From NCBI GenBank assembly GCA_024697785.1, contig JAILEU010000137.1, forward strand, positions 5,952-69,951: 64,000 nt of DNA, in the 5' to 3' direction. Below, one piece after another: positions 55,924 through 64,000 of this stretch. The notes beneath the pieces are model-generated. The model was not told where the DNA came from. It saw nothing but the letters and a program-made list of their open reading frames with translations, and made no database searches. Both the position numbers and the translations under genes were made by a program. Source of the DNA: Bacteroidaceae bacterium (GTDB lineage Bacteria > Bacteroidota > Bacteroidia > Bacteroidales > Bacteroidaceae). The first letter of the stretch is position 1. Each line of letters begins with the position of its first letter.

Positions 55924-56670
55924 CTACAGTTTGGTGCCGCACTCGCCGCAGAACTTCGTGCCGGCCTCGTTCTCGTGGCCACACTTGGGGCACACGGCCT
56001 TGCCGCCTACGGGAGCGCCACACTCGCTGCAGAACTTCGTGCCCTGCTGCACCAACGCCCCGCAGTTGGGACACTTGAGCAGGCTGAGTGGTTTTCCGCA
56101 GTTGTTGCAGAACTTTCCCTGTCCGGCGGGTTTGCCGCAATGGGGGCAAATAGTTGTGCGCTCCTCGAGCTTGCCGTGCCAGACGGTGGCCGTCTCCGCC
56201 ATCTCGTCTATGTTACGGCGCATGGCCTGGCTGCGCGCCTTGGCCACATACGAACTCTCACGCGGAGCGCAGTTCGTGCAGAGGCCTTCCTCCTCGTTCC
56301 AGCAGTCGGCGCACACCCAGCTGTTGCACGAGGGACATTTCTGGAACTGCGGACGAACCTCCTCCTGAGCCTCGTCGAACGACTCCTCCTGCTCCTTGCG
56401 CCATTGGGGACTACGGTCCTCCATGCGGTCGCGCAGCATGTTGGCTCCGTTCTCGATGGCGTTGCTCAGTCCGCTCAGCTTGCCGCCGAACAGGTTGTTC
56501 AGCAAGCTGGCGCCACGGCCGATGCCCTCGGCACGTTTGCGGTTGTTGTAGGTCGTCGACTCTTTGAACGTACTCTTGAAGCCGTTTCCGCAGCAGTCGC
56601 AGTAAAACTCATACTGGAAGCCGGCATCGGTTGACAAATCGTTGTAATTTTTTGTGAAGCTGTGTAACAT
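55924..56670 (-). CDS. multi-zinc-ribbon protein
   Basis: At least six CxxC pairs (CDCCGNG, CPSCNSWVCADC..CTNC, CPHCG..CNNCG, CPNCG..CSECG, CPKCG..CGECG). The TACCTTTG box at 56704-56711 overlaps the longer track start, which favours ATG 56670. Confidence 0.7.
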   Translation of the reverse strand: MLHSFTKNYNDLSTDAGFQYEFYCDCCGNGFKSTFKESTTYNNRKRAEGIGRGASLLNNLFGGKLSGLSNAIENGANMLRDRMEDRSPQWRKEQEESFDEAQEEVRPQFQKCPSCNSWVCADCWNEEEGLCTNCAPRESSYVAKARSQAMRRNIDEMAETATVWHGKLEERTTICPHCGKPAGQGKFCNNCGKPLSLLKCPNCGALVQQGTKFCSECGAPVGGKAVCPKCGHENEAGTKFCGECGTKL

Positions 56671-56703
56671 GGCTGTTTTTGTAAGAAAGTTATTATTTGT
56701 GGG

Positions 56704-56711
56704 CAAAGGTA
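56704..56711 (-). promoter_or_regulatory. -7 box TACCTTTG upstream of zinc-ribbon operon
   Basis: Minus-strand TAnnTTTG 34 nt upstream of ATG 56670. Confidence 0.45.
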
Positions 56712-57019
56712 CAGGAAAATATAATAAAAAGGAAAAAAAACAGAAAAAAAATACTGCTGTCCGCTATAAGCCCCCCGATGGGGGCGTAATTAAGAATGGC
56801 CACTTGGCCACTTTTTTTATTTTTGTACCTTCAGAAGCATTATATAGACTCCTTAAATAAATAGATAGCGCAAATATAGCGCTTTTTCTGGAAAATATCT
56901 CTTTCTGTCAAAAAAAACTATTTTCCGCAAGGCTTGTGGGGATTGGCGGGAAAGACAGGGAGGGGACATCTTCTCTTTTCCTCTTCTTATTATAAAGGAA
57001 TTTCGCAAAAAAGTGCCAA

Positions 57020-57115
57020 CACCTACCTAAAGCAACATAACCAACTATGATACTGGGCGTTATCATAGGTAGGTGTTTGTCAAACACCTACCTAACACCT
57101 ACCTAACACCTACCC
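57020..57115. repeat. CACCTACCTA word array with a perfect 14-bp-stem hairpin
   Basis: taggtaggtgtttg-t-caaacacctaccta (57066-57094), followed by acacctaccta x2. One further copy lies at 57020-57029. Confidence 0.85.
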
Positions 57116-57300
57116 CAGCCGCTTCGCCACGCCATCCTTCGCCCCTCTGGTGACATCTGCTAGTATCGCATCTGGATACTTCTTCCGTATCGTCTCTGGC
57201 TTGACATGTAGTCGAGCCTGCTCACGCTCGGCAGAGCTGATACAAGCATCGCTCTGCACTCACTCAATCGCAGCCTTCTTTCGTTTTGATTCGATGATGA

Positions 57301-57772
57301 TCATAATTCTATTAATACAACCCAACGACCTTCTTTTCTGCCACCTTCACGCATTAGAGCCCCCATCCATTTCACGTTTTATGGTCTTTACCGAAACCTT
57401 TATCTTTTGGGGCATTTCTTGAATGGTTATAGTGTCATTTGCCTTCATTTCCTTAATCAAAAGCACTTGACGCTCAGACAGTTCTTTTGGGTCATCTTTT
57501 GGGCCATTACGACCCTGTTCAGAGTTGCTCACATTATTCCTCTGGAATGTCACACTAACTCCTCCGCAGAAGTTTTCCACCTTGGGCATAGGTAATCCTG
57601 CACTCTCAAAACCCTCACGAATCTTTTTGTAACCACGTCCCCAGGCATCTATAAAACCAGCCTTAAAGAAGGCGTACACATACAGATGCGTGTATGGGCC
57701 GATCACGTAGAAGTTTGGAATGAAGGAGAACTGCCTGCTAGTTACACACCTGAGACGATATTGGGACAACAT
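57301..57772 (-). pseudogene. 5'-truncated, frameshifted remnant of an AlbA_2/HATPase_c_4-type (RecG-like) transcriptional regulator
   Basis: Only the C-terminal about 160 aa remain: FKAGFIDAWGRGYKKIREGFESAGLPMPKVENFCGGVSVTFQR plus the wHTH LSERQVLLIKEMKANDTITIQEM. The expected tail (..LMREGGRKEGRWVVLIEL*) continues in a frame shifted by one nt after about 57360. Confidence 0.6.
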
Positions 57773-57894
57773 TCTTCACGCCAACGTAACAAGAATATAG
57801 CCAACGCCTGTATAGTTTTTATGAATTCTGCCACTCATAATCCCGTGTTCAGTTGTCGTTTTTGATAAGTGAGCTACTTATCTTGATGAGAGGA

Positions 57895-58140
57895 TTAAAT
57901 ATGCAAGTAGTCTGTTTCAAATATGATATAACCGTCATTTTTTTGAACCTTAGGTTCTTTTACCCAACACGGAAGTTTTTTTAATTCTTCAATAACTGTA
58001 GGGACATTTTCAACGACCAAATAATCTTTTTTTAAATCTTTACTTGTGGAATATGAAAAATCCACTCCACATTTCCTACAAATCTCAATAGCCTGTATAT
58101 TATAATACAGGTGGTCATGTTTAACACTTTTTTTTTCCAT
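57895..58140 (-). CDS. hypothetical small protein
   Basis: 81-aa AT-rich ORF, co-directional with the island operon. It has a single CxxC (CRKCG) and no family is recognised. Confidence 0.4.
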   Translation of the reverse strand: MEKKSVKHDHLYYNIQAIEICRKCGVDFSYSTSKDLKKDYLVVENVPTVIEELKKLPCWVKEPKVQKNDGYIIFETDYLHI

Positions 58141-58185
58141 AACTATTATTGTTGTTTTGTTTAATGTAAATAAAAACTTTCAGTT

Positions 58186-58416
58186 TTATAAATAAAGCTT
58201 GAAAATTCTTCGTTTCTCTCTTCTCGCTATATCATGCCAGTCTATAGAATAGCCCACAAAAAAAGAATCCTCTGTTATATACTTGCTTTCTTCATTCTTT
58301 AACTTAATAGAAACTGATTGAGACAATGACTGAAAACACATATTTCTACCTTTCTCTAGTTCCATAGCAAATGATTTCAGTTCCTCATTTACATAGTTCC
58401 TCATCCTGAATTCCAC
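58186..58416 (-). CDS. hypothetical small protein
   Basis: 76-aa AT-rich ORF, 168 nt downstream of the helicase stop. No family is recognised. Confidence 0.35.
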   Translation of the reverse strand: MEFRMRNYVNEELKSFAMELEKGRNMCFQSLSQSVSIKLKNEESKYITEDSFFVGYSIDWHDIARREKRRIFKLYL

Positions 58417-58583
58417 ATTTTCATATTATAATGAACTTATTCGGAAACAGCGATATGCAAACTGATAAAGGCCAAGCCGTTGCAACAACTTGCCCAATCT
58501 ATAATACTTATACAAGTCATTCTCTTCTTTGGGGGTCATAAAGACAGATTTATATATTTTACGTCTAGTGGAAAATGTAATAC

Positions 58584-61196
58584 TCAGTCTGACGATTTGG
58601 AACTATTGACCAAAATGTTTTCAAGATTCAAAAGACGCGCTTTCTTCTCAGAATTCATTTCTTCAAAATGTTCCATAACTTCATTGTGTGTTCCTAAGAA
58701 ATAGGAGATTTTATTTTCATATGTGATATATAATCGTTTCTTGGCTCTAGACATTGCAACATAAAGAACGCGTGCTTCTTCGTCAACATTTGTGGAATTT
58801 TTTGGCATTCTTCCATTTGTTATGTCATAAAGAATAACATTGTCAAATTCCAAACCTTTAGCCTTATGTATCGTCATAATAAACATACGTTCATTCAACA
58901 CGCCATTCTGGAAGAAATCTCCTTCGTTGAAAGTTCTAAATTCATATAAATGATTAACCAATTGGTGATTGAAATACACATCCTTCGCTGAATCTATGAC
59001 AACTTTGTTAAACAATTTCCTTATATAAGGGAAGAGTTTGATTTCTTTAATGATTTTTTGACTAACCATTTGATTATATATGTGGTTAAACTCGTAATCA
59101 AAGGTGTTCTCATTATTGATGGTAGCTGAGTACATCTTATTCATAGTATGCTGATATAAAAGCCAATATTTGTTCATCAATCTTCTCTGAACCTTCTTTA
59201 ATTCAGGATGAGAGATAAAGCTTGCCTGAACATCTACAAACTTTGACATTTTTTCATAGCAATAATCTGTGAGAGACTTTGTTGCTCTGATGTCATCTAA
59301 TGCATTATGAGAATTAACACCTTCAAGACCATAAGTTTCTAGGAGACTTTCCAATGTATGCTTTCTAAGGTTCGGATCTAACATTCTTGCCATTTTAAGA
59401 GTGTCCCAATATACTGGAGTCCTGAAAGTGACATTCTTTGTCCTTCTTGTGATATTATTTTCAAGGACATGAACATCGTAGTTCACATTATGACCTAACA
59501 ATTCAGCGTTGCCTATATAATTCACAAAAAAGTCAAATGCCTCTTCTGCTTCCATGAAATACTGGTTTTCTTTTTGTTTTTGTGTACCGTTGCTTCTTCT
59601 TTTATACTCTTCTACCATGGGATTAACAAGTCCATTATGGAGTGTGGGAGGGATCGTTTTGTCGTTCTGCAATTTAATAATAATATCCAATTCTGTGCCA
59701 GGAACGATCTTCCCATTTCTCATCTTCAAGGCTGCAATCTGAATAATGTCATCGTTAAATATGTCTAATCCTGTTGTCTCTGTGTCGAACAACACAATTT
59801 CCTTATCCTCATATGATTTGCAAAATTCAATAAAATAAGAACTGTTTTCATAGAACATCAGATCCAGTGGTGTTAATCCTATATCTCTCATTTTCTTGAT
59901 GCATCTTTTTGAGAGTTTCAACGTGTCAAGTGCTTTCGTTTGGTAAAGAATTCGTGCCCAATCAGAAAATCTTGTGTCATTTACGACCACGGAGAAATGA
60001 CTATACAATGTCTTAAAATCCACCAATTTGAAAACATCTCTTTTTGACAGCTTAATATGTGTGATATTGTGATTATCAAGAATTTCTGAGATTCTTTCTG
60101 CATCGTCATTTGTACGTACAAGGATTCCTACGGATTCTAAATCTTTCTCATTTTTAGTTTCTTCATATTTTTCTAGACTATTTAAATATAAGTTGCGTCC
60201 AAGTGTTGCAATAACATTTAGTTGGTCATCTCTACTATTACAATTTATCAGCATTAGTCCATCGTCTATATGCTGTTTGTTGTTTGTTCTTGGCAACAAG
60301 GTGGCATCATCAACTTTTAGTCTATAAATAGCATAGTTATTTAGCATGTCAAGCAAGTACATCGGTGAGCGGTAGTTGTTTGACAGTACGAAAAAGTTAT
60401 TACCTGCCTTTTCTTTTAGAGATACAATACTATCATGCTTCGCACCTAAGAATGAATATATAGCTTGTCTCTCATCACCAAGATAAACTACGGATTCATA
60501 GTCTTTCGCAACGAGTTTTTCTATAATGCCTAACTGAATTGGATATAGGTCTTGCACCTCATCAACTTGAATCCATTTGTAAGATGAATATTGATACTTA
60601 TGCTGATAGCCTTCTTCCATCAATGCCTTATAGGTAATTAACAGAATGTCATCAAAGTCTATTAACTTATTTTCTTCCTTGTACTTAATATACCTTTCAG
60701 CCAAGTCCCTTGTACTGCTATCAATGTAAGGTTCCCTACCGATAATCTCAAAAGGGAAACCATTGGACTTCATATAAATTGAAGCCGCAACATTTGTTGT
60801 TTTCATTATCTGCCATCCAGGGACTTGAGGCTTTTCCGTTAATTCTGCAATAATTTCTTCTTGCTCGGTATCATCCGCAATACCAACATCAATAGGGACT
60901 AAATCGTTTTCATAAATGAATCTTATGCAGAAGCGATGTAAGTTGCCAACGAAAAGGTCTGCCATCACATCACCAACAGTTTTTTTTATGCGTTCTTTCA
61001 TTTCTCGAGAAGCTCTGTTTGTAAATGTTAGGCACAGCATATCCCTGTAGTCAACGTTATAAATCTGATGAGAAAAAGCAACCCTATAACTAAGAATGTC
61101 GGTCTTTCCACATCCTGGAGCACCGAGGACGAGAGCATGGCCACTATTAAACTTTATGACCTCATTCTGTTTGTTATCAAAAACTTTATCTGCCAT
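58584..61196 (-). CDS. UvrD/Rep-family SF1 helicase with inserted DEDDh (DnaQ-like) 3'-5' exonuclease domain
   Basis: 870-aa ORF with helicase motifs in order: Walker A GAPGCGKT (aa 25-32), Ia LTFTNRASREM, II VDEVQD (211-216), III YLGDERQAIYSF, IV LSNNYRS (271-277), V MTIHKAKGLEFD (774-785), VI VLYVAMSRAKKRLYI (810-824). Between IV and V lie ExoI LFDTETTG (D471, E473), ExoII GHNVNYD (D574) and ExoIII HNALDD (H630, D635), corresponding to about nt 59262-59798. Confidence 0.9.
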   Translation of the reverse strand: MADKVFDNKQNEVIKFNSGHALVLGAPGCGKTDILSYRVAFSHQIYNVDYRDMLCLTFTNRASREMKERIKKTVGDVMADLFVGNLHRFCIRFIYENDLVPIDVGIADDTEQEEIIAELTEKPQVPGWQIMKTTNVAASIYMKSNGFPFEIIGREPYIDSSTRDLAERYIKYKEENKLIDFDDILLITYKALMEEGYQHKYQYSSYKWIQVDEVQDLYPIQLGIIEKLVAKDYESVVYLGDERQAIYSFLGAKHDSIVSLKEKAGNNFFVLSNNYRSPMYLLDMLNNYAIYRLKVDDATLLPRTNNKQHIDDGLMLINCNSRDDQLNVIATLGRNLYLNSLEKYEETKNEKDLESVGILVRTNDDAERISEILDNHNITHIKLSKRDVFKLVDFKTLYSHFSVVVNDTRFSDWARILYQTKALDTLKLSKRCIKKMRDIGLTPLDLMFYENSSYFIEFCKSYEDKEIVLFDTETTGLDIFNDDIIQIAALKMRNGKIVPGTELDIIIKLQNDKTIPPTLHNGLVNPMVEEYKRRSNGTQKQKENQYFMEAEEAFDFFVNYIGNAELLGHNVNYDVHVLENNITRRTKNVTFRTPVYWDTLKMARMLDPNLRKHTLESLLETYGLEGVNSHNALDDIRATKSLTDYCYEKMSKFVDVQASFISHPELKKVQRRLMNKYWLLYQHTMNKMYSATINNENTFDYEFNHIYNQMVSQKIIKEIKLFPYIRKLFNKVVIDSAKDVYFNHQLVNHLYEFRTFNEGDFFQNGVLNERMFIMTIHKAKGLEFDNVILYDITNGRMPKNSTNVDEEARVLYVAMSRAKKRLYITYENKISYFLGTHNEVMEHFEEMNSEKKARLLNLENILVNSSKSSD

Positions 61197-61206
61197 ATTG
61201 TTTAAT

Positions 61207-62763
61207 TTATAATTGAACGAAACAGCATCTGCCGGTTTCTTTCATCCAAGATTTATGTTCTTGATATGCTTTTTCATTTTCACATACCCATACAACTTTT
61301 GTTTTGAATCGTTTTGGCTTTTTGGGTTTAGGAGCATCTCCGTCTGTAAAGATAATAAGACCGTCATATTTTAGCTTTTTTTGTATAAAGTCAAAGATTG
61401 GTTGAAAACTCGTTCCTCCTCTTCCAACAATTTCAATTCTTTTCTTTGCCTTTTCAAAAGTCTGAACTTCGCTTAAACTGCAATCAAATTGTACAACATC
61501 TACATGTTCTACTCCGTATTTGAACAGTTTTCTTATAACCGAATAGAAATGTGTCAGTACTTCGTCTGATATTGAACCACTTACATCAACTGCAATCAAT
61601 ATATTCGTATCAAATCTACGTATGCTCCCCATGTTTTCAAAACCGGAACGTCTGTTTGGACGCATTCTTGTAAGATGCCTTTTCGATGATAAGATGCTAG
61701 CTCTAAATCCAGTTAAAGTTTTCCGGTAATCAATTTTTGCCTTAGTATTAGCAATAATTGTTTGAGCTAGGTTTCCTGCTAAACTCCCCCAACCAGCTCC
61801 GGATGACTCTATTTCTTCTATGATAGCATCTATCGTACAACTCATCATGCTATCTTCTTCCCATAGTGATGATAGGTCTGCTGATGGTATAGTTTTATTC
61901 TTTGGCTGATTATCGAATATTCTTTTTTCTTTAGGGTGTCCTCCTTGACGGTTTTGCTCTGAAGGTATATTGGGATTATCAGCATTTGAATCATCGGCTT
62001 CTGAATTTTGGTTCGGTTTATTTGTTTTTGAAGAAGAACTTTTGGGAATGCGCATTATAGAGCCATCTGCCAATGTCAGTACAAAGTAATTATCGTCAGA
62101 ATCGTTTGATTGCGTTGAACCTTTGAAAGGTTCTTCATCGTTAGATGCGGACGAACCATTAGGCTCTATACTTGAGGAAGAATCCTCACCTGTCTTGCTG
62201 TTCTTGTCGGTGTTTTTGTCGGTTTCTGAATCATCATCAAAACTATTACCTTCTTGATTGGGAGACGTTTCGTTGACTTTCTCTTTCTCGTTTTCTATTT
62301 TGCTTGTATCGCTATTATTATCAGTACTTTGAATTTCCACATCTCCATTTTCATCTGGCACAAGACCTTTTCCTTCAATTCGCATAGAATACCATTCATA
62401 ACTCTCATTTTCAGGCAAATTGAAGTCTGATGGTTTGGGCAGATTAATGTCTGTAAAATCATAATTATCAGATAGCACCAGGTTACTTCCTAATGCCATT
62501 GACTTTCTTTTGCATCCATCTGGCTGTCTTTCATATGGATGTTTTAAAATTATACGGATGGCTTCAGCCTTTAAGCAATTTTCTAATTGACTGTCAGATA
62601 ATTTGTTTAATTGTTCTGGATTATACTCAATTTTTCCCTTACCACACCTGAAAGGGCATGACATATTGGCGTTCAGAACCATTTCATGCGCTAATACCGT
62701 CATTAGCAATGCTGGTTCTGTTAAATACCATTTATCAATAATCTGTTTAATCCTTGAATCCAT
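61207..62763 (-). CDS. VWA-domain protein of the DUF2201 type (peptidase-like N-domain, degenerate) that partners MoxR ATPases
   Basis: 518-aa ORF. C-terminal VWA fold with MIDAS DVSGS (D393, S395, S397), T451 and D474, preceded by GWGSLAG...RPNRR. The N-domain (WYLTEPAL...IEYNPE) fits my recollection of DUF2201_N, but the expected HExxH reads AEAIR (aa 66-70). A roughly 150-aa acidic/Ser/Asn-rich linker lies between the two domains. Confidence 0.85.
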   Translation of the reverse strand: MDSRIKQIIDKWYLTEPALLMTVLAHEMVLNANMSCPFRCGKGKIEYNPEQLNKLSDSQLENCLKAEAIRIILKHPYERQPDGCKRKSMALGSNLVLSDNYDFTDINLPKPSDFNLPENESYEWYSMRIEGKGLVPDENGDVEIQSTDNNSDTSKIENEKEKVNETSPNQEGNSFDDDSETDKNTDKNSKTGEDSSSSIEPNGSSASNDEEPFKGSTQSNDSDDNYFVLTLADGSIMRIPKSSSSKTNKPNQNSEADDSNADNPNIPSEQNRQGGHPKEKRIFDNQPKNKTIPSADLSSLWEEDSMMSCTIDAIIEEIESSGAGWGSLAGNLAQTIIANTKAKIDYRKTLTGFRASILSSKRHLTRMRPNRRSGFENMGSIRRFDTNILIAVDVSGSISDEVLTHFYSVIRKLFKYGVEHVDVVQFDCSLSEVQTFEKAKKRIEIVGRGGTSFQPIFDFIQKKLKYDGLIIFTDGDAPKPKKPKRFKTKVVWVCENEKAYQEHKSWMKETGRCCFVQL

Positions 62764-62764
62764 T

Positions 62765-63847
62765 CTATGCCTTTATTCCACTTGTGTATTTAACGACCTC
62801 TCTATATACTGTGAAGGCTTCAGACGCAACAAAATGAGCTGCTTCTTCATATTTTTTGTCATTCAAATAATGGGCAAAACTTGCCAGCACTTCGTTTTTA
62901 CTATAACTTTTAAGATATCCTATATACTTTTCAAGGTTGCTGGCAACTTTCTTATTATTTGAAAGAACATCAAGGTGGCTTTCAAGAAACATGAATATAT
63001 CCTCATTCAGGATTGTAAACTGATGAAGGGACAAATCAGATAACAATGGAACTATCAACTCAAAATCATTCAAGAGATCTTTTGCATCAACAGTTTTGTT
63101 CTGTCCAATATTTTTGATAAAAAAGTTTGTTGCCTTAACACCAACGATGCTAGACATTAACAACACATCATTCTTCTCTAAGGTTTTTTTTCCTTTTATA
63201 ACATCAGAAACTCTTTTCCATGCGCGTCTGTCTGGAGTCTTATCTAGTCCAGTATCTTCACCCTCTTCTAAGGAAGGGTCTTTATCCAACCATATGCCAT
63301 TATCCCTTATAAATGAGATTACTCTTGAATCCAAATCTTTTTTCTGTGCCCAAATAATCCATTCTTCAACAGAGGGTTCAAACCTAAAGATGTTGAATCG
63401 GGATACAAGGGCAGGGTCTAAGTCTGTGAGTTGATACTCTTCACCTTCATTTACTGCAGCGATTATTCGACTGCCTTTTGGCAAGTGCTTCCCAGCCAAT
63501 TTCCTATTAAGAGCTAAATCCATAATCGTTTGTAATACCTCAGGGCGAGCACGATTCAACTCATCTAAGAACAAAACAATAGGTTTGCCATCAACAGGAA
63601 ACCAATATGGCGGCATAAACTCGGTTTTGCCTGTTTTCTCATCTTTGTTTGGGAGGCCAATAAGGTCTCCAGGGTCTGACATTTGGCCTAGGAACAAGGG
63701 AATGACAATCATCCCTTTCTGCGAGAAGTATTCGGTTAATATTTCCGACTTACCGATACCATGCCTTCCAGCTAACATGATATTTTGGTCTGCTGGAATG
63801 TTGTCCAACATATATTTCAACTGAGTAATGTTAACTTTAACGTTCAT
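62765..63847 (-). CDS. MoxR-like AAA+ ATPase (AAA_5 type)
   Basis: 360-aa ORF with Walker A GRHGIGKS (K33), Walker B VLFLDELNRA (D95, E96), sensor-1 IIAAVN and arginine finger ALVSRF. The C-terminal about 190 aa is a helical extension with no recognised motif. Confidence 0.9.
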   Translation of the reverse strand: MNVKVNITQLKYMLDNIPADQNIMLAGRHGIGKSEILTEYFSQKGMIVIPLFLGQMSDPGDLIGLPNKDEKTGKTEFMPPYWFPVDGKPIVLFLDELNRARPEVLQTIMDLALNRKLAGKHLPKGSRIIAAVNEGEEYQLTDLDPALVSRFNIFRFEPSVEEWIIWAQKKDLDSRVISFIRDNGIWLDKDPSLEEGEDTGLDKTPDRRAWKRVSDVIKGKKTLEKNDVLLMSSIVGVKATNFFIKNIGQNKTVDAKDLLNDFELIVPLLSDLSLHQFTILNEDIFMFLESHLDVLSNNKKVASNLEKYIGYLKSYSKNEVLASFAHYLNDKKYEEAAHFVASEAFTVYREVVKYTSGIKA

Positions 63848-63912
63848 TTTCTGTATGTATTTCTATTTACTCTAATTGTGCAATCTTTTTTTCAGCATTG
63901 ATTTTTCAACCG

Positions 63913-63920
63913 CAAAGATA
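63913..63920 (-). promoter_or_regulatory. -7 box TATCTTTG upstream of the AAA+/VWA/helicase operon
   Basis: Minus-strand TAnnTTTG 66 nt upstream of ATG 63847, in an AT-rich spacer. Confidence 0.45.
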
Positions 63921-64000
63921 ATAAGTTTATGCGAATTCTTTGTTCGTTCACAGATTTTTTTTATTCATTACTGAAATCATGTTAAATTCTCTCATCATTG

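Follow-up and report, generated by a model that had tools for sequence, protein, structure and literature searches.

Background

In pairs of a MoxR-like AAA+ ATPase and a von Willebrand factor type A (VWA) protein such as RavA-ViaA, CbbQ-CbbO and NorQ-NorD, and likewise in Midasin, a metal-ion-dependent adhesion site (MIDAS) grips an acidic residue of the client and the AAA+ ring remodels that client. Here we discuss a three-gene operon in which a pair of this kind precedes a UvrD/PcrA-like superfamily 1 (SF1) helicase that carries a DEDDh exonuclease. The operon lies in a 64,000-nucleotide stretch of DNA from a Bacteroidaceae bacterium (assembly GCA_024697785.1, contig JAILEU010000137.1, positions 5,952 to 69,951); this whole stretch is called the window below, and all positions are counted from its first letter. 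In our opinion the trio may well be a defence system of gut and rumen Bacteroidales against phages or other mobile DNA, a reading to which we give a probability of about one half.

Helicases of the UvrD/PcrA/Rep type translocate 3'-5' on single-stranded DNA; their activity, and the binding of partners, is governed by the 2B domain. Domains of the DEDDh type act as 3'-5' exonucleases. With Hachiman, Nhi, DdmD, AddAB/RecBCD and Gabija the trio shares the coupling of a DNA motor to a nuclease. In those systems, however, the nuclease is a separate or terminal domain of the PD-(D/E)XK, Toprim or phospholipase D (PLD) type, whereas the trio has a DEDDh domain at the 2B position of its helicase and a MoxR-VWA pair for partners.

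MoxR-vWA pairs have been proposed as first-level regulators of ternary conflict systems, in which they restructure a third component (Kaur et al. 2020, PMC7159879). Four such subsystems were distinguished, with VMAP, an inactive STAND NTPase, FtsH or a beta-propeller fused to the vWA as the third component, and neither UvrD nor an exonuclease is named among them (PMC7159879). Like these systems, the trio combines a MoxR AAA+ protein that has an arginine finger with a MIDAS-bearing vWA protein and one further protein, and like them it is predicted to act in conflict. It differs from them in three respects: its third component is a UvrD-DEDDh helicase-exonuclease; its VWA domain forms the C-terminus of the protein, without a fused effector, and the extra domain is an N-terminal pseudo-peptidase; and the described systems belong to multicellular bacteria, whereas the trio is found in unicellular gut anaerobes.

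An annotation made earlier from the letters of this locus (the initial annotation) had proposed a defence operon here, with a three-gene composition that is not known from any named system. This agrees with our searches, since PADLOC-DB v2 and NCBIfam gave no match for genes 1 and 2, and a search of the literature on DUF2201 and on MoxR/vWA defence, which was not exhaustive, found no description of the trio. Most likely, therefore, the trio is a variant of both helicase-nuclease defence and the MoxR-vWA ternary conflict systems that was not previously described.

The three genes and their products

The open reading frame (ORF) list gives three intact genes, all on the minus strand. Together with the domains of their products they are:

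62765-63847, minus strand: gene 1, MoxR-like AAA+ ATPase (AAA_5), 360 amino acids (Pfam AAA_5, 1.6e-8, above the cut-off)
61207-62763, minus strand: gene 2, pseudo-peptidase-VWA protein, 518 amino acids
62365-62763, minus strand: gene 2 residues 1-133, zincin-like N-terminal helical/beta domain with the HExxH zinc ligands lost (alignments and AlphaFold)
61849-62364, minus strand: gene 2 residues 134-305, acidic Ser/Asn-rich linker, predicted to be disordered (model confidence and alignment)
61207-61848, minus strand: gene 2 residues 306-518 and the stop codon, helical segment followed by the VWA domain (Pfam DUF2201, 7.7e-16)
58584-61196, minus strand: gene 3, UvrD/PcrA-type SF1A helicase with a DEDDh exonuclease at the 2B position, 870 amino acids (Pfam, AlphaFold, Foldseek)
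59271-59801, minus strand: gene 3 residues 466-642, DEDDh 3'-5' exonuclease domain (RNase_T, 6.9e-20; PADLOC DEDDh model, 9.7e-24)

Read on the minus strand, the junction between genes 1 and 2 is TAG-A-ATG, with a single nucleotide (nt) between them, and that between genes 2 and 3 is TAA, 10 nt and ATG. The coordinates, the common direction and both spacers given in the initial annotation are exact. The NCBI names of the three proteins are generic (MCR5140213-15).

Gene 3 is the most unusual member of the trio. Besides RNase_T it matches UvrD-helicase (3e-42), UvrD_C (6e-46) and UvrD_C_2 in Pfam. Its helicase motifs include GCGKT, which places K31, and DEVQD at 212 (D212/E213), and its exonuclease residues are D471/E473 in FDTETTG, D574, and H630/D635 in SHNALDD. 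The full set of SF1 helicase motifs and the complete DEDDh set that had been noted before are indeed all there, and K31, D212/E213, D471, E473, D574, H630 and D635 are invariant in 13 gene 3 homologues down to 46% identity. Gene 3 thus has the helicase motifs and the 1A/1B/2A fold of the SF1A UvrD-like superfamily, as well as the Exo I-III motifs of the DEDDh (DnaQ/RNase T) group.

The initial annotation needs a correction on how the two activities, which it wrote as helicase::exonuclease, are joined: this is no end-to-end fusion. The RNase_T match (residues 468-640) is nested within the UvrD_C match (residues 270-828), so the exonuclease is inserted into the helicase and not attached to one of its ends. 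The profile of the gene 3 family aligns to PcrA residues 12-404 and 541-625; the gap in this alignment means that gene 3 residues ~394-735 (~340 residues) replace the ~140-residue 2B domain of PcrA. The AlphaFold model of gene 3 (mean predicted local distance difference test, pLDDT, 82; predicted template modelling score, pTM, 0.75) finds UvrD/PcrA/Rep as its top Foldseek matches (E~1e-24), and none of the solved structures searched with it has an exonuclease insertion at 2B. Gene 3 therefore shares all helicase motifs and the overall fold with UvrD, PcrA and Rep but not their 2B domain, and its scores fall so far under the NCBIfam equivalog cut-offs (173 against 911 bits for pcrA, 158 against 1144 for uvrD, 145 against 951 for rep) that it is not one of those orthologues. 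A DEDDh 3'-5' exonuclease and a helicase are also combined in one polypeptide in WRN and in the Firmicute DinG-exonuclease (DinG exonuclease domain, 4.9e-12), but there the exonuclease is N-terminal on an SF2 helicase (RecQ, DinG), whereas in gene 3 it is internal to an SF1A helicase.

In PADLOC, gene 3 matches the DEDDh model and otherwise only generic helicase models, the best being RTasHel (4.5e-61) and another GajB (3.9e-56), which generic UvrD helicases match too. We considered Gabija, the defence-associated reverse transcriptase (DRT) systems with RTasHel, and AddAB, and rejected membership in all three because their defining partner genes are absent. The low-GC island that holds the operon has no ORF of the GajA/OLD family (ATPase-Toprim nuclease); no reverse transcriptase was recognised among its ORFs, of which the three small ones, when scanned, gave a HATPase_c_4 fragment or no Pfam match; and AddAB/RecBCD models gave only partial helicase-domain matches, gene 3 having no RecB-type PD-(D/E)XK nuclease domain.

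Gene 1 has every hallmark of an AAA_5/MoxR-group ATPase: a Walker A motif (GRHGIGKS, K33), a Walker B motif (D95/E96), sensor 1 (N133) and an arginine finger (R150 in SRF, 149-151). The complete AAA+ core described before is thereby located, and K33, D95, E96, N133 and R150 do not vary in any of the 66 gene 1 homologues compared. Over its full length gene 1 matches the phage family PHROG 1297, 'ATPase' (3.9e-50), and its best match among solved structures is the AAA module of Midasin. The ATPase is presumably hexameric.

Gene 2 supplies the VWA half of the pair, directly adjacent to gene 1 and with a complete MIDAS of the DxSxS, T, D form: DVSGS (D393/S395/S397), GGT (T451) and FTDG (D474). 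The intact MIDAS reported earlier is borne out by the homologues, in which D393, S395, T451 and D474 are invariant and S397 is nearly so. The combination of an AAA_5-type ATPase with a MIDAS-bearing adaptor is shared with RavA-ViaA, CbbQ-CbbO, NorQ-NorD and Midasin/Rea1. Unlike these, the trio operon contains no metabolic enzyme partner, would have a different client, and carries a pseudo-peptidase on the adaptor.

In this N-terminal domain, AlphaFold models residues 1-130 with a pLDDT of 70-89, although the overall confidence for gene 2 is low (57.5); DUF2201_N scores 17.3 bits, below the Pfam cut-off of 23.2. The domain aligns with the metallopeptidase domain of phage relatives, but where these have HEIEH, HETWH, HELLH or HEALH the window protein reads A-E-A-I-R...H75. 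All Bacteroidales-type members have xExxR..H, while the phage relatives keep HExxH..H. By sequence, genes 1 and 2 belong to PHROG 1297 and PHROG 1314 (gene 2, 1.1e-35), but gene 2 lacks the intact HExxH..H. Judged by these residues, the domain is a pseudo-peptidase. The linker that follows (pLDDT below 50 for residues 135-223 and 242-306) varies among homologues in length and sequence. The lost peptidase site and the long acidic linker together point to a binding or scaffolding role for the N-terminal domain, and not to catalysis. Foldseek with the gene 2 model gave weak VWA-domain matches only (best E 2.6e-3) and left the N-terminal domain unmatched, and the gene 2 profile found, among the sequences of solved structures, a single spurious low-complexity match to a ribosomal protein. 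The conservation of all catalytic residues of the three proteins suggests that they are under purifying selection.

The trio recurs and diverges as a unit

A search of 5.8 billion proteins returned more than 100 with the full gene 3 architecture, at 43-99% identity; the few source names attached to them are Prevotella and Bacteroidales. Loci with the three genes in the same order occur at 82% (locus L086), 71% (L087-89) and 55% (L095) identity, and a Muribaculaceae genome has the trio as well (L006). In L093/94, at 45% identity, gene 3 stands tail-to-tail with the AAA_5 and DUF2201 genes, that is, convergent and on the opposite strand, yet still adjacent to them, so that the adjacency has survived an inversion.

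Of the 80 loci that came out of a metagenome scan seeded with the gene 2 alignment, essentially all have gene 1 ahead of gene 2; the pair is adjacent in essentially all of the 83 loci that we examined. Within the clade closest to the window, every locus with sequence downstream of gene 2 has a gene 3 homologue there (19 of 19), which looks disrupted in two: as two ORFs in L145 and as a short fragment, the only part detected, in L147. The trio loci beyond these 19 are the five already mentioned (L006, L086, L087-89, L095 and the rearranged L093/94). Co-occurrence outside this genome, which the initial annotation had proposed to test, is thus supported, and the three genes co-diverge. Between genes 2 and 3, trio loci have anything from a 43-nt overlap to a 12-nt gap. 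Pairwise identity matrices of the three proteins from 15 loci are correlated with r = 0.82-0.92 (Mantel p~5e-4), genes 2 and 3 having r = 0.92. A neighbour-joining tree unites the gene 3 sequences linked to the trio in one clade, within which the stand-alone homologues L090 and L091 are nested. The correlated divergence and the linkage indicate that the three genes evolve as a unit.

The unit also moves. Its flanking genes differ at almost every locus, and in the window it occupies an island of ~7.4 kb and ~35% GC in a genome of ~60% GC, both of which indicate mobility. The trio frequency obtained by a scan of the contigs of species-representative genomes is a lower bound. We are highly confident that the three genes constitute one functional, mobile module.

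Neighbourhoods of the trio loci

Restriction-modification, Pbe/Ssp, Tiamat-like and DUF4238 genes abound in the flanks of trio loci. Examples of what lies there are a Type I restriction-modification system with REase-ARP (L160), a Type III restriction enzyme (Res) with NUDIX (L151), PLD-SNF2 and structural maintenance of chromosomes (SMC)-like ATPase genes (L161), a Schlafen/AlbA_2 protein with a 1,600-amino-acid helicase (L149, L093), DUF4238 (L152), a Zeta toxin (L095), an insertion sequence (IS) transposase (L145) and, beside mnmE, a McrB-like ATPase, a methylase, Fic and NERD-UvrD (L087).

When 105 non-redundant neighbours of the trio were compared with PADLOC, 321 families were matched, as against 114 for 105 neighbours of stand-alone gene 3 homologues, a comparison that covers about 14 distinct loci and one crude control. 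Among the matches of the trio neighbours are PbeA (2e-301), REase_III (3e-273), SspC (4e-229), MTase_I (5e-117), PDC-S11 (4e-115), TmtA and MkoA; the PbeA and SspC matches probably come from the PLD-SNF2 and SMC-like genes of L161. Matches in the control set are mostly to generic helicases, and among the 25 families listed for it one has E<1e-100 (AbiP2). By this crude measure the proposed enrichment of the trio beside known defence genes holds, and the neighbourhoods support the view that it sits in defence islands. A consistent placement in housekeeping, repair or conjugation loci, which had been named as the alternative, is not what the trio clade displays, although it is true of the wider helicase family.

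A recurring set of genes adjoins the trio on unrelated contigs: proteins of ~198 and ~357 amino acids, DUF4268, a ~1,600-amino-acid sacsin-HATPase/UvrD/AAA_11/AAA_12 helicase and sometimes Schlafen AlbA_2 (L093 15058-22522; L149 1104-8832; also L152, L154, L155/L156, L151 and L086). This set may represent a defence cassette that neighbours the trio, or else one section of a larger conserved island.

An Exonuc_VII_L-like protein of 457-471 amino acids flanks the trio in two loci (L086 5904-7319, plus strand; L156 5480-6853, plus strand), immediately upstream in one and immediately downstream in the other. It may be an optional fourth component.

Points against a defence role, and other explanations

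A number of observations weigh against the defence reading. To begin with, the assignment is guilt by association, coming from the same 14 or so loci and the single control. Further, the initial annotation had proposed to look for the trio across phyla, and in this it was too wide: all trio loci with a taxon label are from Bacteroidales, and the trio was seen in no other phylum.

The partners, moreover, are found apart. About 60 loci have distant gene 1-gene 2 pairs (about 32-57% identity) without gene 3, pairs of Bacteroidales among them. Such pairs (metagenome loci L163-L223) stand in dense co-directional arrays of mostly unannotatable genes, among which ~417- and ~197-amino-acid DUF1281_C-like proteins, DUF2779, an ATP-dependent DNA ligase, ClpP and leucine-rich-repeat proteins recur; most neighbours of such pairs match no Pfam or PHROG family. 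Conversely, L090 and L091 have no pair nearby in spite of their position inside the trio clade of gene 3. It might be argued from this, as well as from the loci with a gene 3 homologue and no pair (L007-L023, L090, L091) and from the opposite strands in L093, that two independent units merely travel together: a helicase-exonuclease that is self-sufficient as an effector or repair enzyme, and a MoxR-VWA remodeller of some other phage or host client. We consider this improbable, since within the clade the association is complete in the 19 suitable loci found through gene 2 and in five others, the junction of genes 2 and 3 is very tight, these two proteins co-diverge, and adjacency was kept despite the inversion in L093.

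Gene 3 homologues of at most 38% identity stand alone, with native GC and in housekeeping synteny; their hosts are Prevotella, Segatella, Muribaculaceae and one genome each of Glaciecola and Acinetobacter. As the UvrD-DEDDh protein is mainly a stand-alone housekeeping gene, its architecture is not intrinsically that of a defence effector. The interpretation given in the initial annotation is supported in part. Could the trio then serve housekeeping DNA repair, with gene 3 a paralogue of the chromosomal Bacteroidales UvrD-DEDDh helicase and the pair an assembly chaperone? In sister clades of gene 3 the GC is indeed native and housekeeping synteny is conserved (MurQ-like and GDSL genes in L007/L010/L012), Usp, AbgT, MoeA, TrmA and PutA lie beside gene 3 homologues in gammaproteobacterial loci, L090 and L091 are near recG and the gene for the exonuclease VII small subunit, and there are the two loci in which an Exonuc_VII_L-like gene flanks the trio. 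Even so, the window copy is of foreign GC, its distribution is patchy and its insertion sites vary, defence neighbours are enriched relative to the stand-alone homologues, and gene 3 is far below the PcrA, UvrD and Rep cut-offs. In our opinion a repair function is very improbable. The simplest history would be that a mobile lineage arose from a chromosomal UvrD-DEDDh helicase and was then joined to a MoxR/pseudo-peptidase-VWA pair that circulates in the phages and elements of Bacteroidales.

As a separate observation, the stand-alone homologue of L090 (18075-19994, plus strand; 53% identity) has an AbiP2-like reverse transcriptase (PADLOC, 3.8e-154) ~5.5 kb downstream, in otherwise housekeeping surroundings.

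Finally, the AAA+/VWA pair abounds in lytic phages, and there it does not serve as host defence. With tblastn, gene 1 relatives were found in 393 and gene 2 relatives in 117 phage records, mostly of N4-like podoviruses and jumbo phages; the pair is also present in jumbo and mega-phage contigs, and pseudo-peptidase-VWA/MoxR pairs that lack the helicase occur on IMG/VR contigs of up to 364 kb (L227, L228, L233), some of them megaphage-sized. Phage N4 gp24/gp25 are homologous to genes 1 and 2 over nearly the full length, and here too the ATPase comes before the VWA protein. Directly downstream of the pair, N4-like phages have an SF1 replicative helicase and a DNA polymerase, as in Pseudomonas phage YH30 (L142 4918-9003) and Vibrio phage D505 (L143 5381-9063), which both have the order ATPase, gp25-like peptidase-VWA, SF1 helicase, DNA polymerase. 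The middle genes of N4 are its replication class. N4 gp24 and gp25 are middle-gene transcripts (PMC4193335), and the MoxR and metallopeptidase-vWA proteins of jumbo phages have been interpreted as a pair of chaperones for assembly (Iyer et al. 2021, PMC7824862).

Because the pair is so widespread in phages, the trio might instead be a DNA-processing module of mobile elements, descended from the replication modules of phages or shared with them, a possibility that the initial annotation had not considered. The pair would then assemble or load an SF1 helicase for the replication, repair, establishment or counter-defence of an integrative or conjugative element, and the window would hold a stranded remnant of such an element. 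The family membership of genes 1 and 2, the N4-like gene order and the jumbo and mega-phage contigs all agree with this explanation, and so does a cluster of AACACCTACCTAA repeats in the island, which resembles recombinase or iteron sites. In addition, L086 and L093 lie among genes that look like those of conjugative transposons (Toprim_2, DUF4099, Peptidase_M23), which is a further point against defence; conjugative-element surroundings, however, often carry defence cargo.

We nevertheless regard this explanation as rather unlikely. No close relative of gene 3 was found among the 2.9 million contigs of IMG/VR, the best having 30% identity, and for the same reason we rejected a prophage origin of the trio. 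The genes beside pairs that lack gene 3 do not belong to PHROG families. The phage pair is proposed to act in virion assembly or replication and not in a cellular island, and several trio islands are tiny, set between housekeeping genes and devoid of integrase, replication and transfer genes (the window; L095; L087 beside mnmE). The phage helicase is Dda/RecD-like, not UvrD-like, and has no exonuclease, and helicase adjacency is absent in PBS1, which has the pair but no helicase beside it, and in rV5, which has only the ATPase. The phage VWA proteins, including those of N4 and the jumbo phages, keep HExxH..H, and the loss of this peptidase motif in the Bacteroidales clade points to a changed role.

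The label 'HNH endonuclease' that the phage VWA protein (PHROG 1314) carries in RefSeq and PHROG looks like an annotation error.

The position of the phage pair next to a replicative helicase suggests that the ancestral job of the AAA+/VWA pair was helicase handling. This fits a defence system and a mobile-element module alike.

How the system might work

If the trio is a defence system, gene 3 would be its effector. By analogy with UvrD/PcrA/Rep, its motor would move 3'->5' on single-stranded DNA, and by analogy with the DnaQ-like DEDDh families, the exonuclease at the regulatory 2B hinge would degrade the engaged DNA, perhaps the 3' ends of replicating, nicked or incoming foreign DNA. Genes 1 and 2 would be an ATP-driven remodeller and its adaptor: the VWA protein may dock the client through the metal of its MIDAS, and the MoxR-like ATPase, as a presumed hexamer, may then alter the conformation of the client. 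Such remodelling could load, license, release or reset the helicase-exonuclease so that it acts on foreign and not on host DNA. That the pair controls the helicase, and not the reverse, is our conjecture, and it is purely by conjecture that we see a sensor or a licensing device in the pair.

Our full proposal can thus be worded as follows, tentatively and at somewhat less than even odds: the trio is an undescribed immune system of gut Bacteroidales, in which a MoxR ATPase and a pseudo-peptidase-VWA protein load or license a helicase with an exonuclease at 2B, the module being shared with, and possibly captured from, the replication regions of phages.

The low-GC island

The remaining features of the locus, with the borders of the island, are:

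56710-64000, running ~100-200 nt past the window end, no strand: low-GC island (composition and the identical contig L001)
63913-63920, minus strand: TATCTTTG, candidate Bacteroidetes-type -7 promoter box, 66 nt upstream of the gene 1 ATG (sequence match)
57895-58140 and 58186-58416, minus strand: two small ORFs just downstream of gene 3, of 81 and 76 amino acids (no Pfam family)
57347-57772, minus strand: ORF of 141 amino acids that matches only the C-terminal end of HATPase_c_4 ('RecG-like' Schlafen/AlbA-type regulators; Pfam)
57018-57117: AACACCTACCTAA repeat cluster at the left island edge, four direct copies (57018, 57083, 57094, 57105) and an inverted copy (57066-57077)
55924-56706, minus strand: zinc-ribbon host gene bordering the island, 260 amino acids, with multiple C-terminal zinc ribbons (DZR, Zn_Ribbon_1; Pfam)

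Per kb, the GC content is 0.32-0.37 across 58-64 kb and 0.52-0.69 (mostly 0.55-0.63) across 1-57 kb. The GC drop seen in the initial annotation is therefore real, while its value of about 30% is slightly low. Apart from the trio, the island contains two small unconserved ORFs, a gene remnant and the repeat cluster. According to the Pfam matches of the flanks, its neighbours in the high-GC host are the zinc-ribbon gene on one side and a SIMPL gene on the other. The stop-codon region of the zinc-ribbon gene coincides with the GC drop, which indicates insertion directly downstream of that gene. On the other side, the public Logan contig L001, identical to the window but for 1 mismatch in 6,789 nt, reaches 1.8 kb beyond the window end; there GC is back to 0.53-0.60 within ~200 nt and the host SIMPL gene follows. 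This fixes the size of the island given above and makes gene 1 the first gene of the operon. A further operon partner upstream, beyond the window, is ruled out, as L001 has host genes there.

The promoter-type box proposed upstream of the operon is present, as a sequence match only; the TATCTTTG pattern has 32 matches in the window against 16.6 expected, so that it is weak evidence alone. The AACACCTACCTAA cluster looks like recombinase arm sites or iterons, and the island carrying it has no integrase or replication gene. The 141-amino-acid ORF is probably the remnant of a longer gene, and GC around it is intermediate (0.43-0.49). We did not accept the 76- and 81-amino-acid ORFs as components of the system: they match no family, and other trio loci carry unrelated genes downstream of gene 3 (IS transposase, NUDIX, DUF4238, REase-ARP), where the two ORFs were not searched for directly.

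Implications

If the proposal is true, the trio would be a fifth class of MoxR-vWA ternary conflict systems, one that targets nucleic acids, and, once confirmed, a tractable case of a MoxR-VWA pair controlling a nucleic-acid enzyme, on which the predicted role of such pairs as conflict-system regulators could be tested. It would also give the first clue to what the gp24/gp25-type pair does in phages: for the ATPase-VWA pair of N4-like and jumbo phages, which has no assigned function, the trio locus suggests helicase loading or remodelling, that is, helicase handling. An exonuclease inside a UvrD-like 2B domain, with no counterpart in solved structures, is of interest for the mechanism of helicases and possibly as a tool enzyme.

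The Bacteroidales are dominant, phage-rich bacteria of the human gut and the rumen, and their defence repertoire is under-explored. If confirmed, the trio would add to that repertoire a type of defence that current detection misses, PADLOC v2 having no model for two of its three genes.

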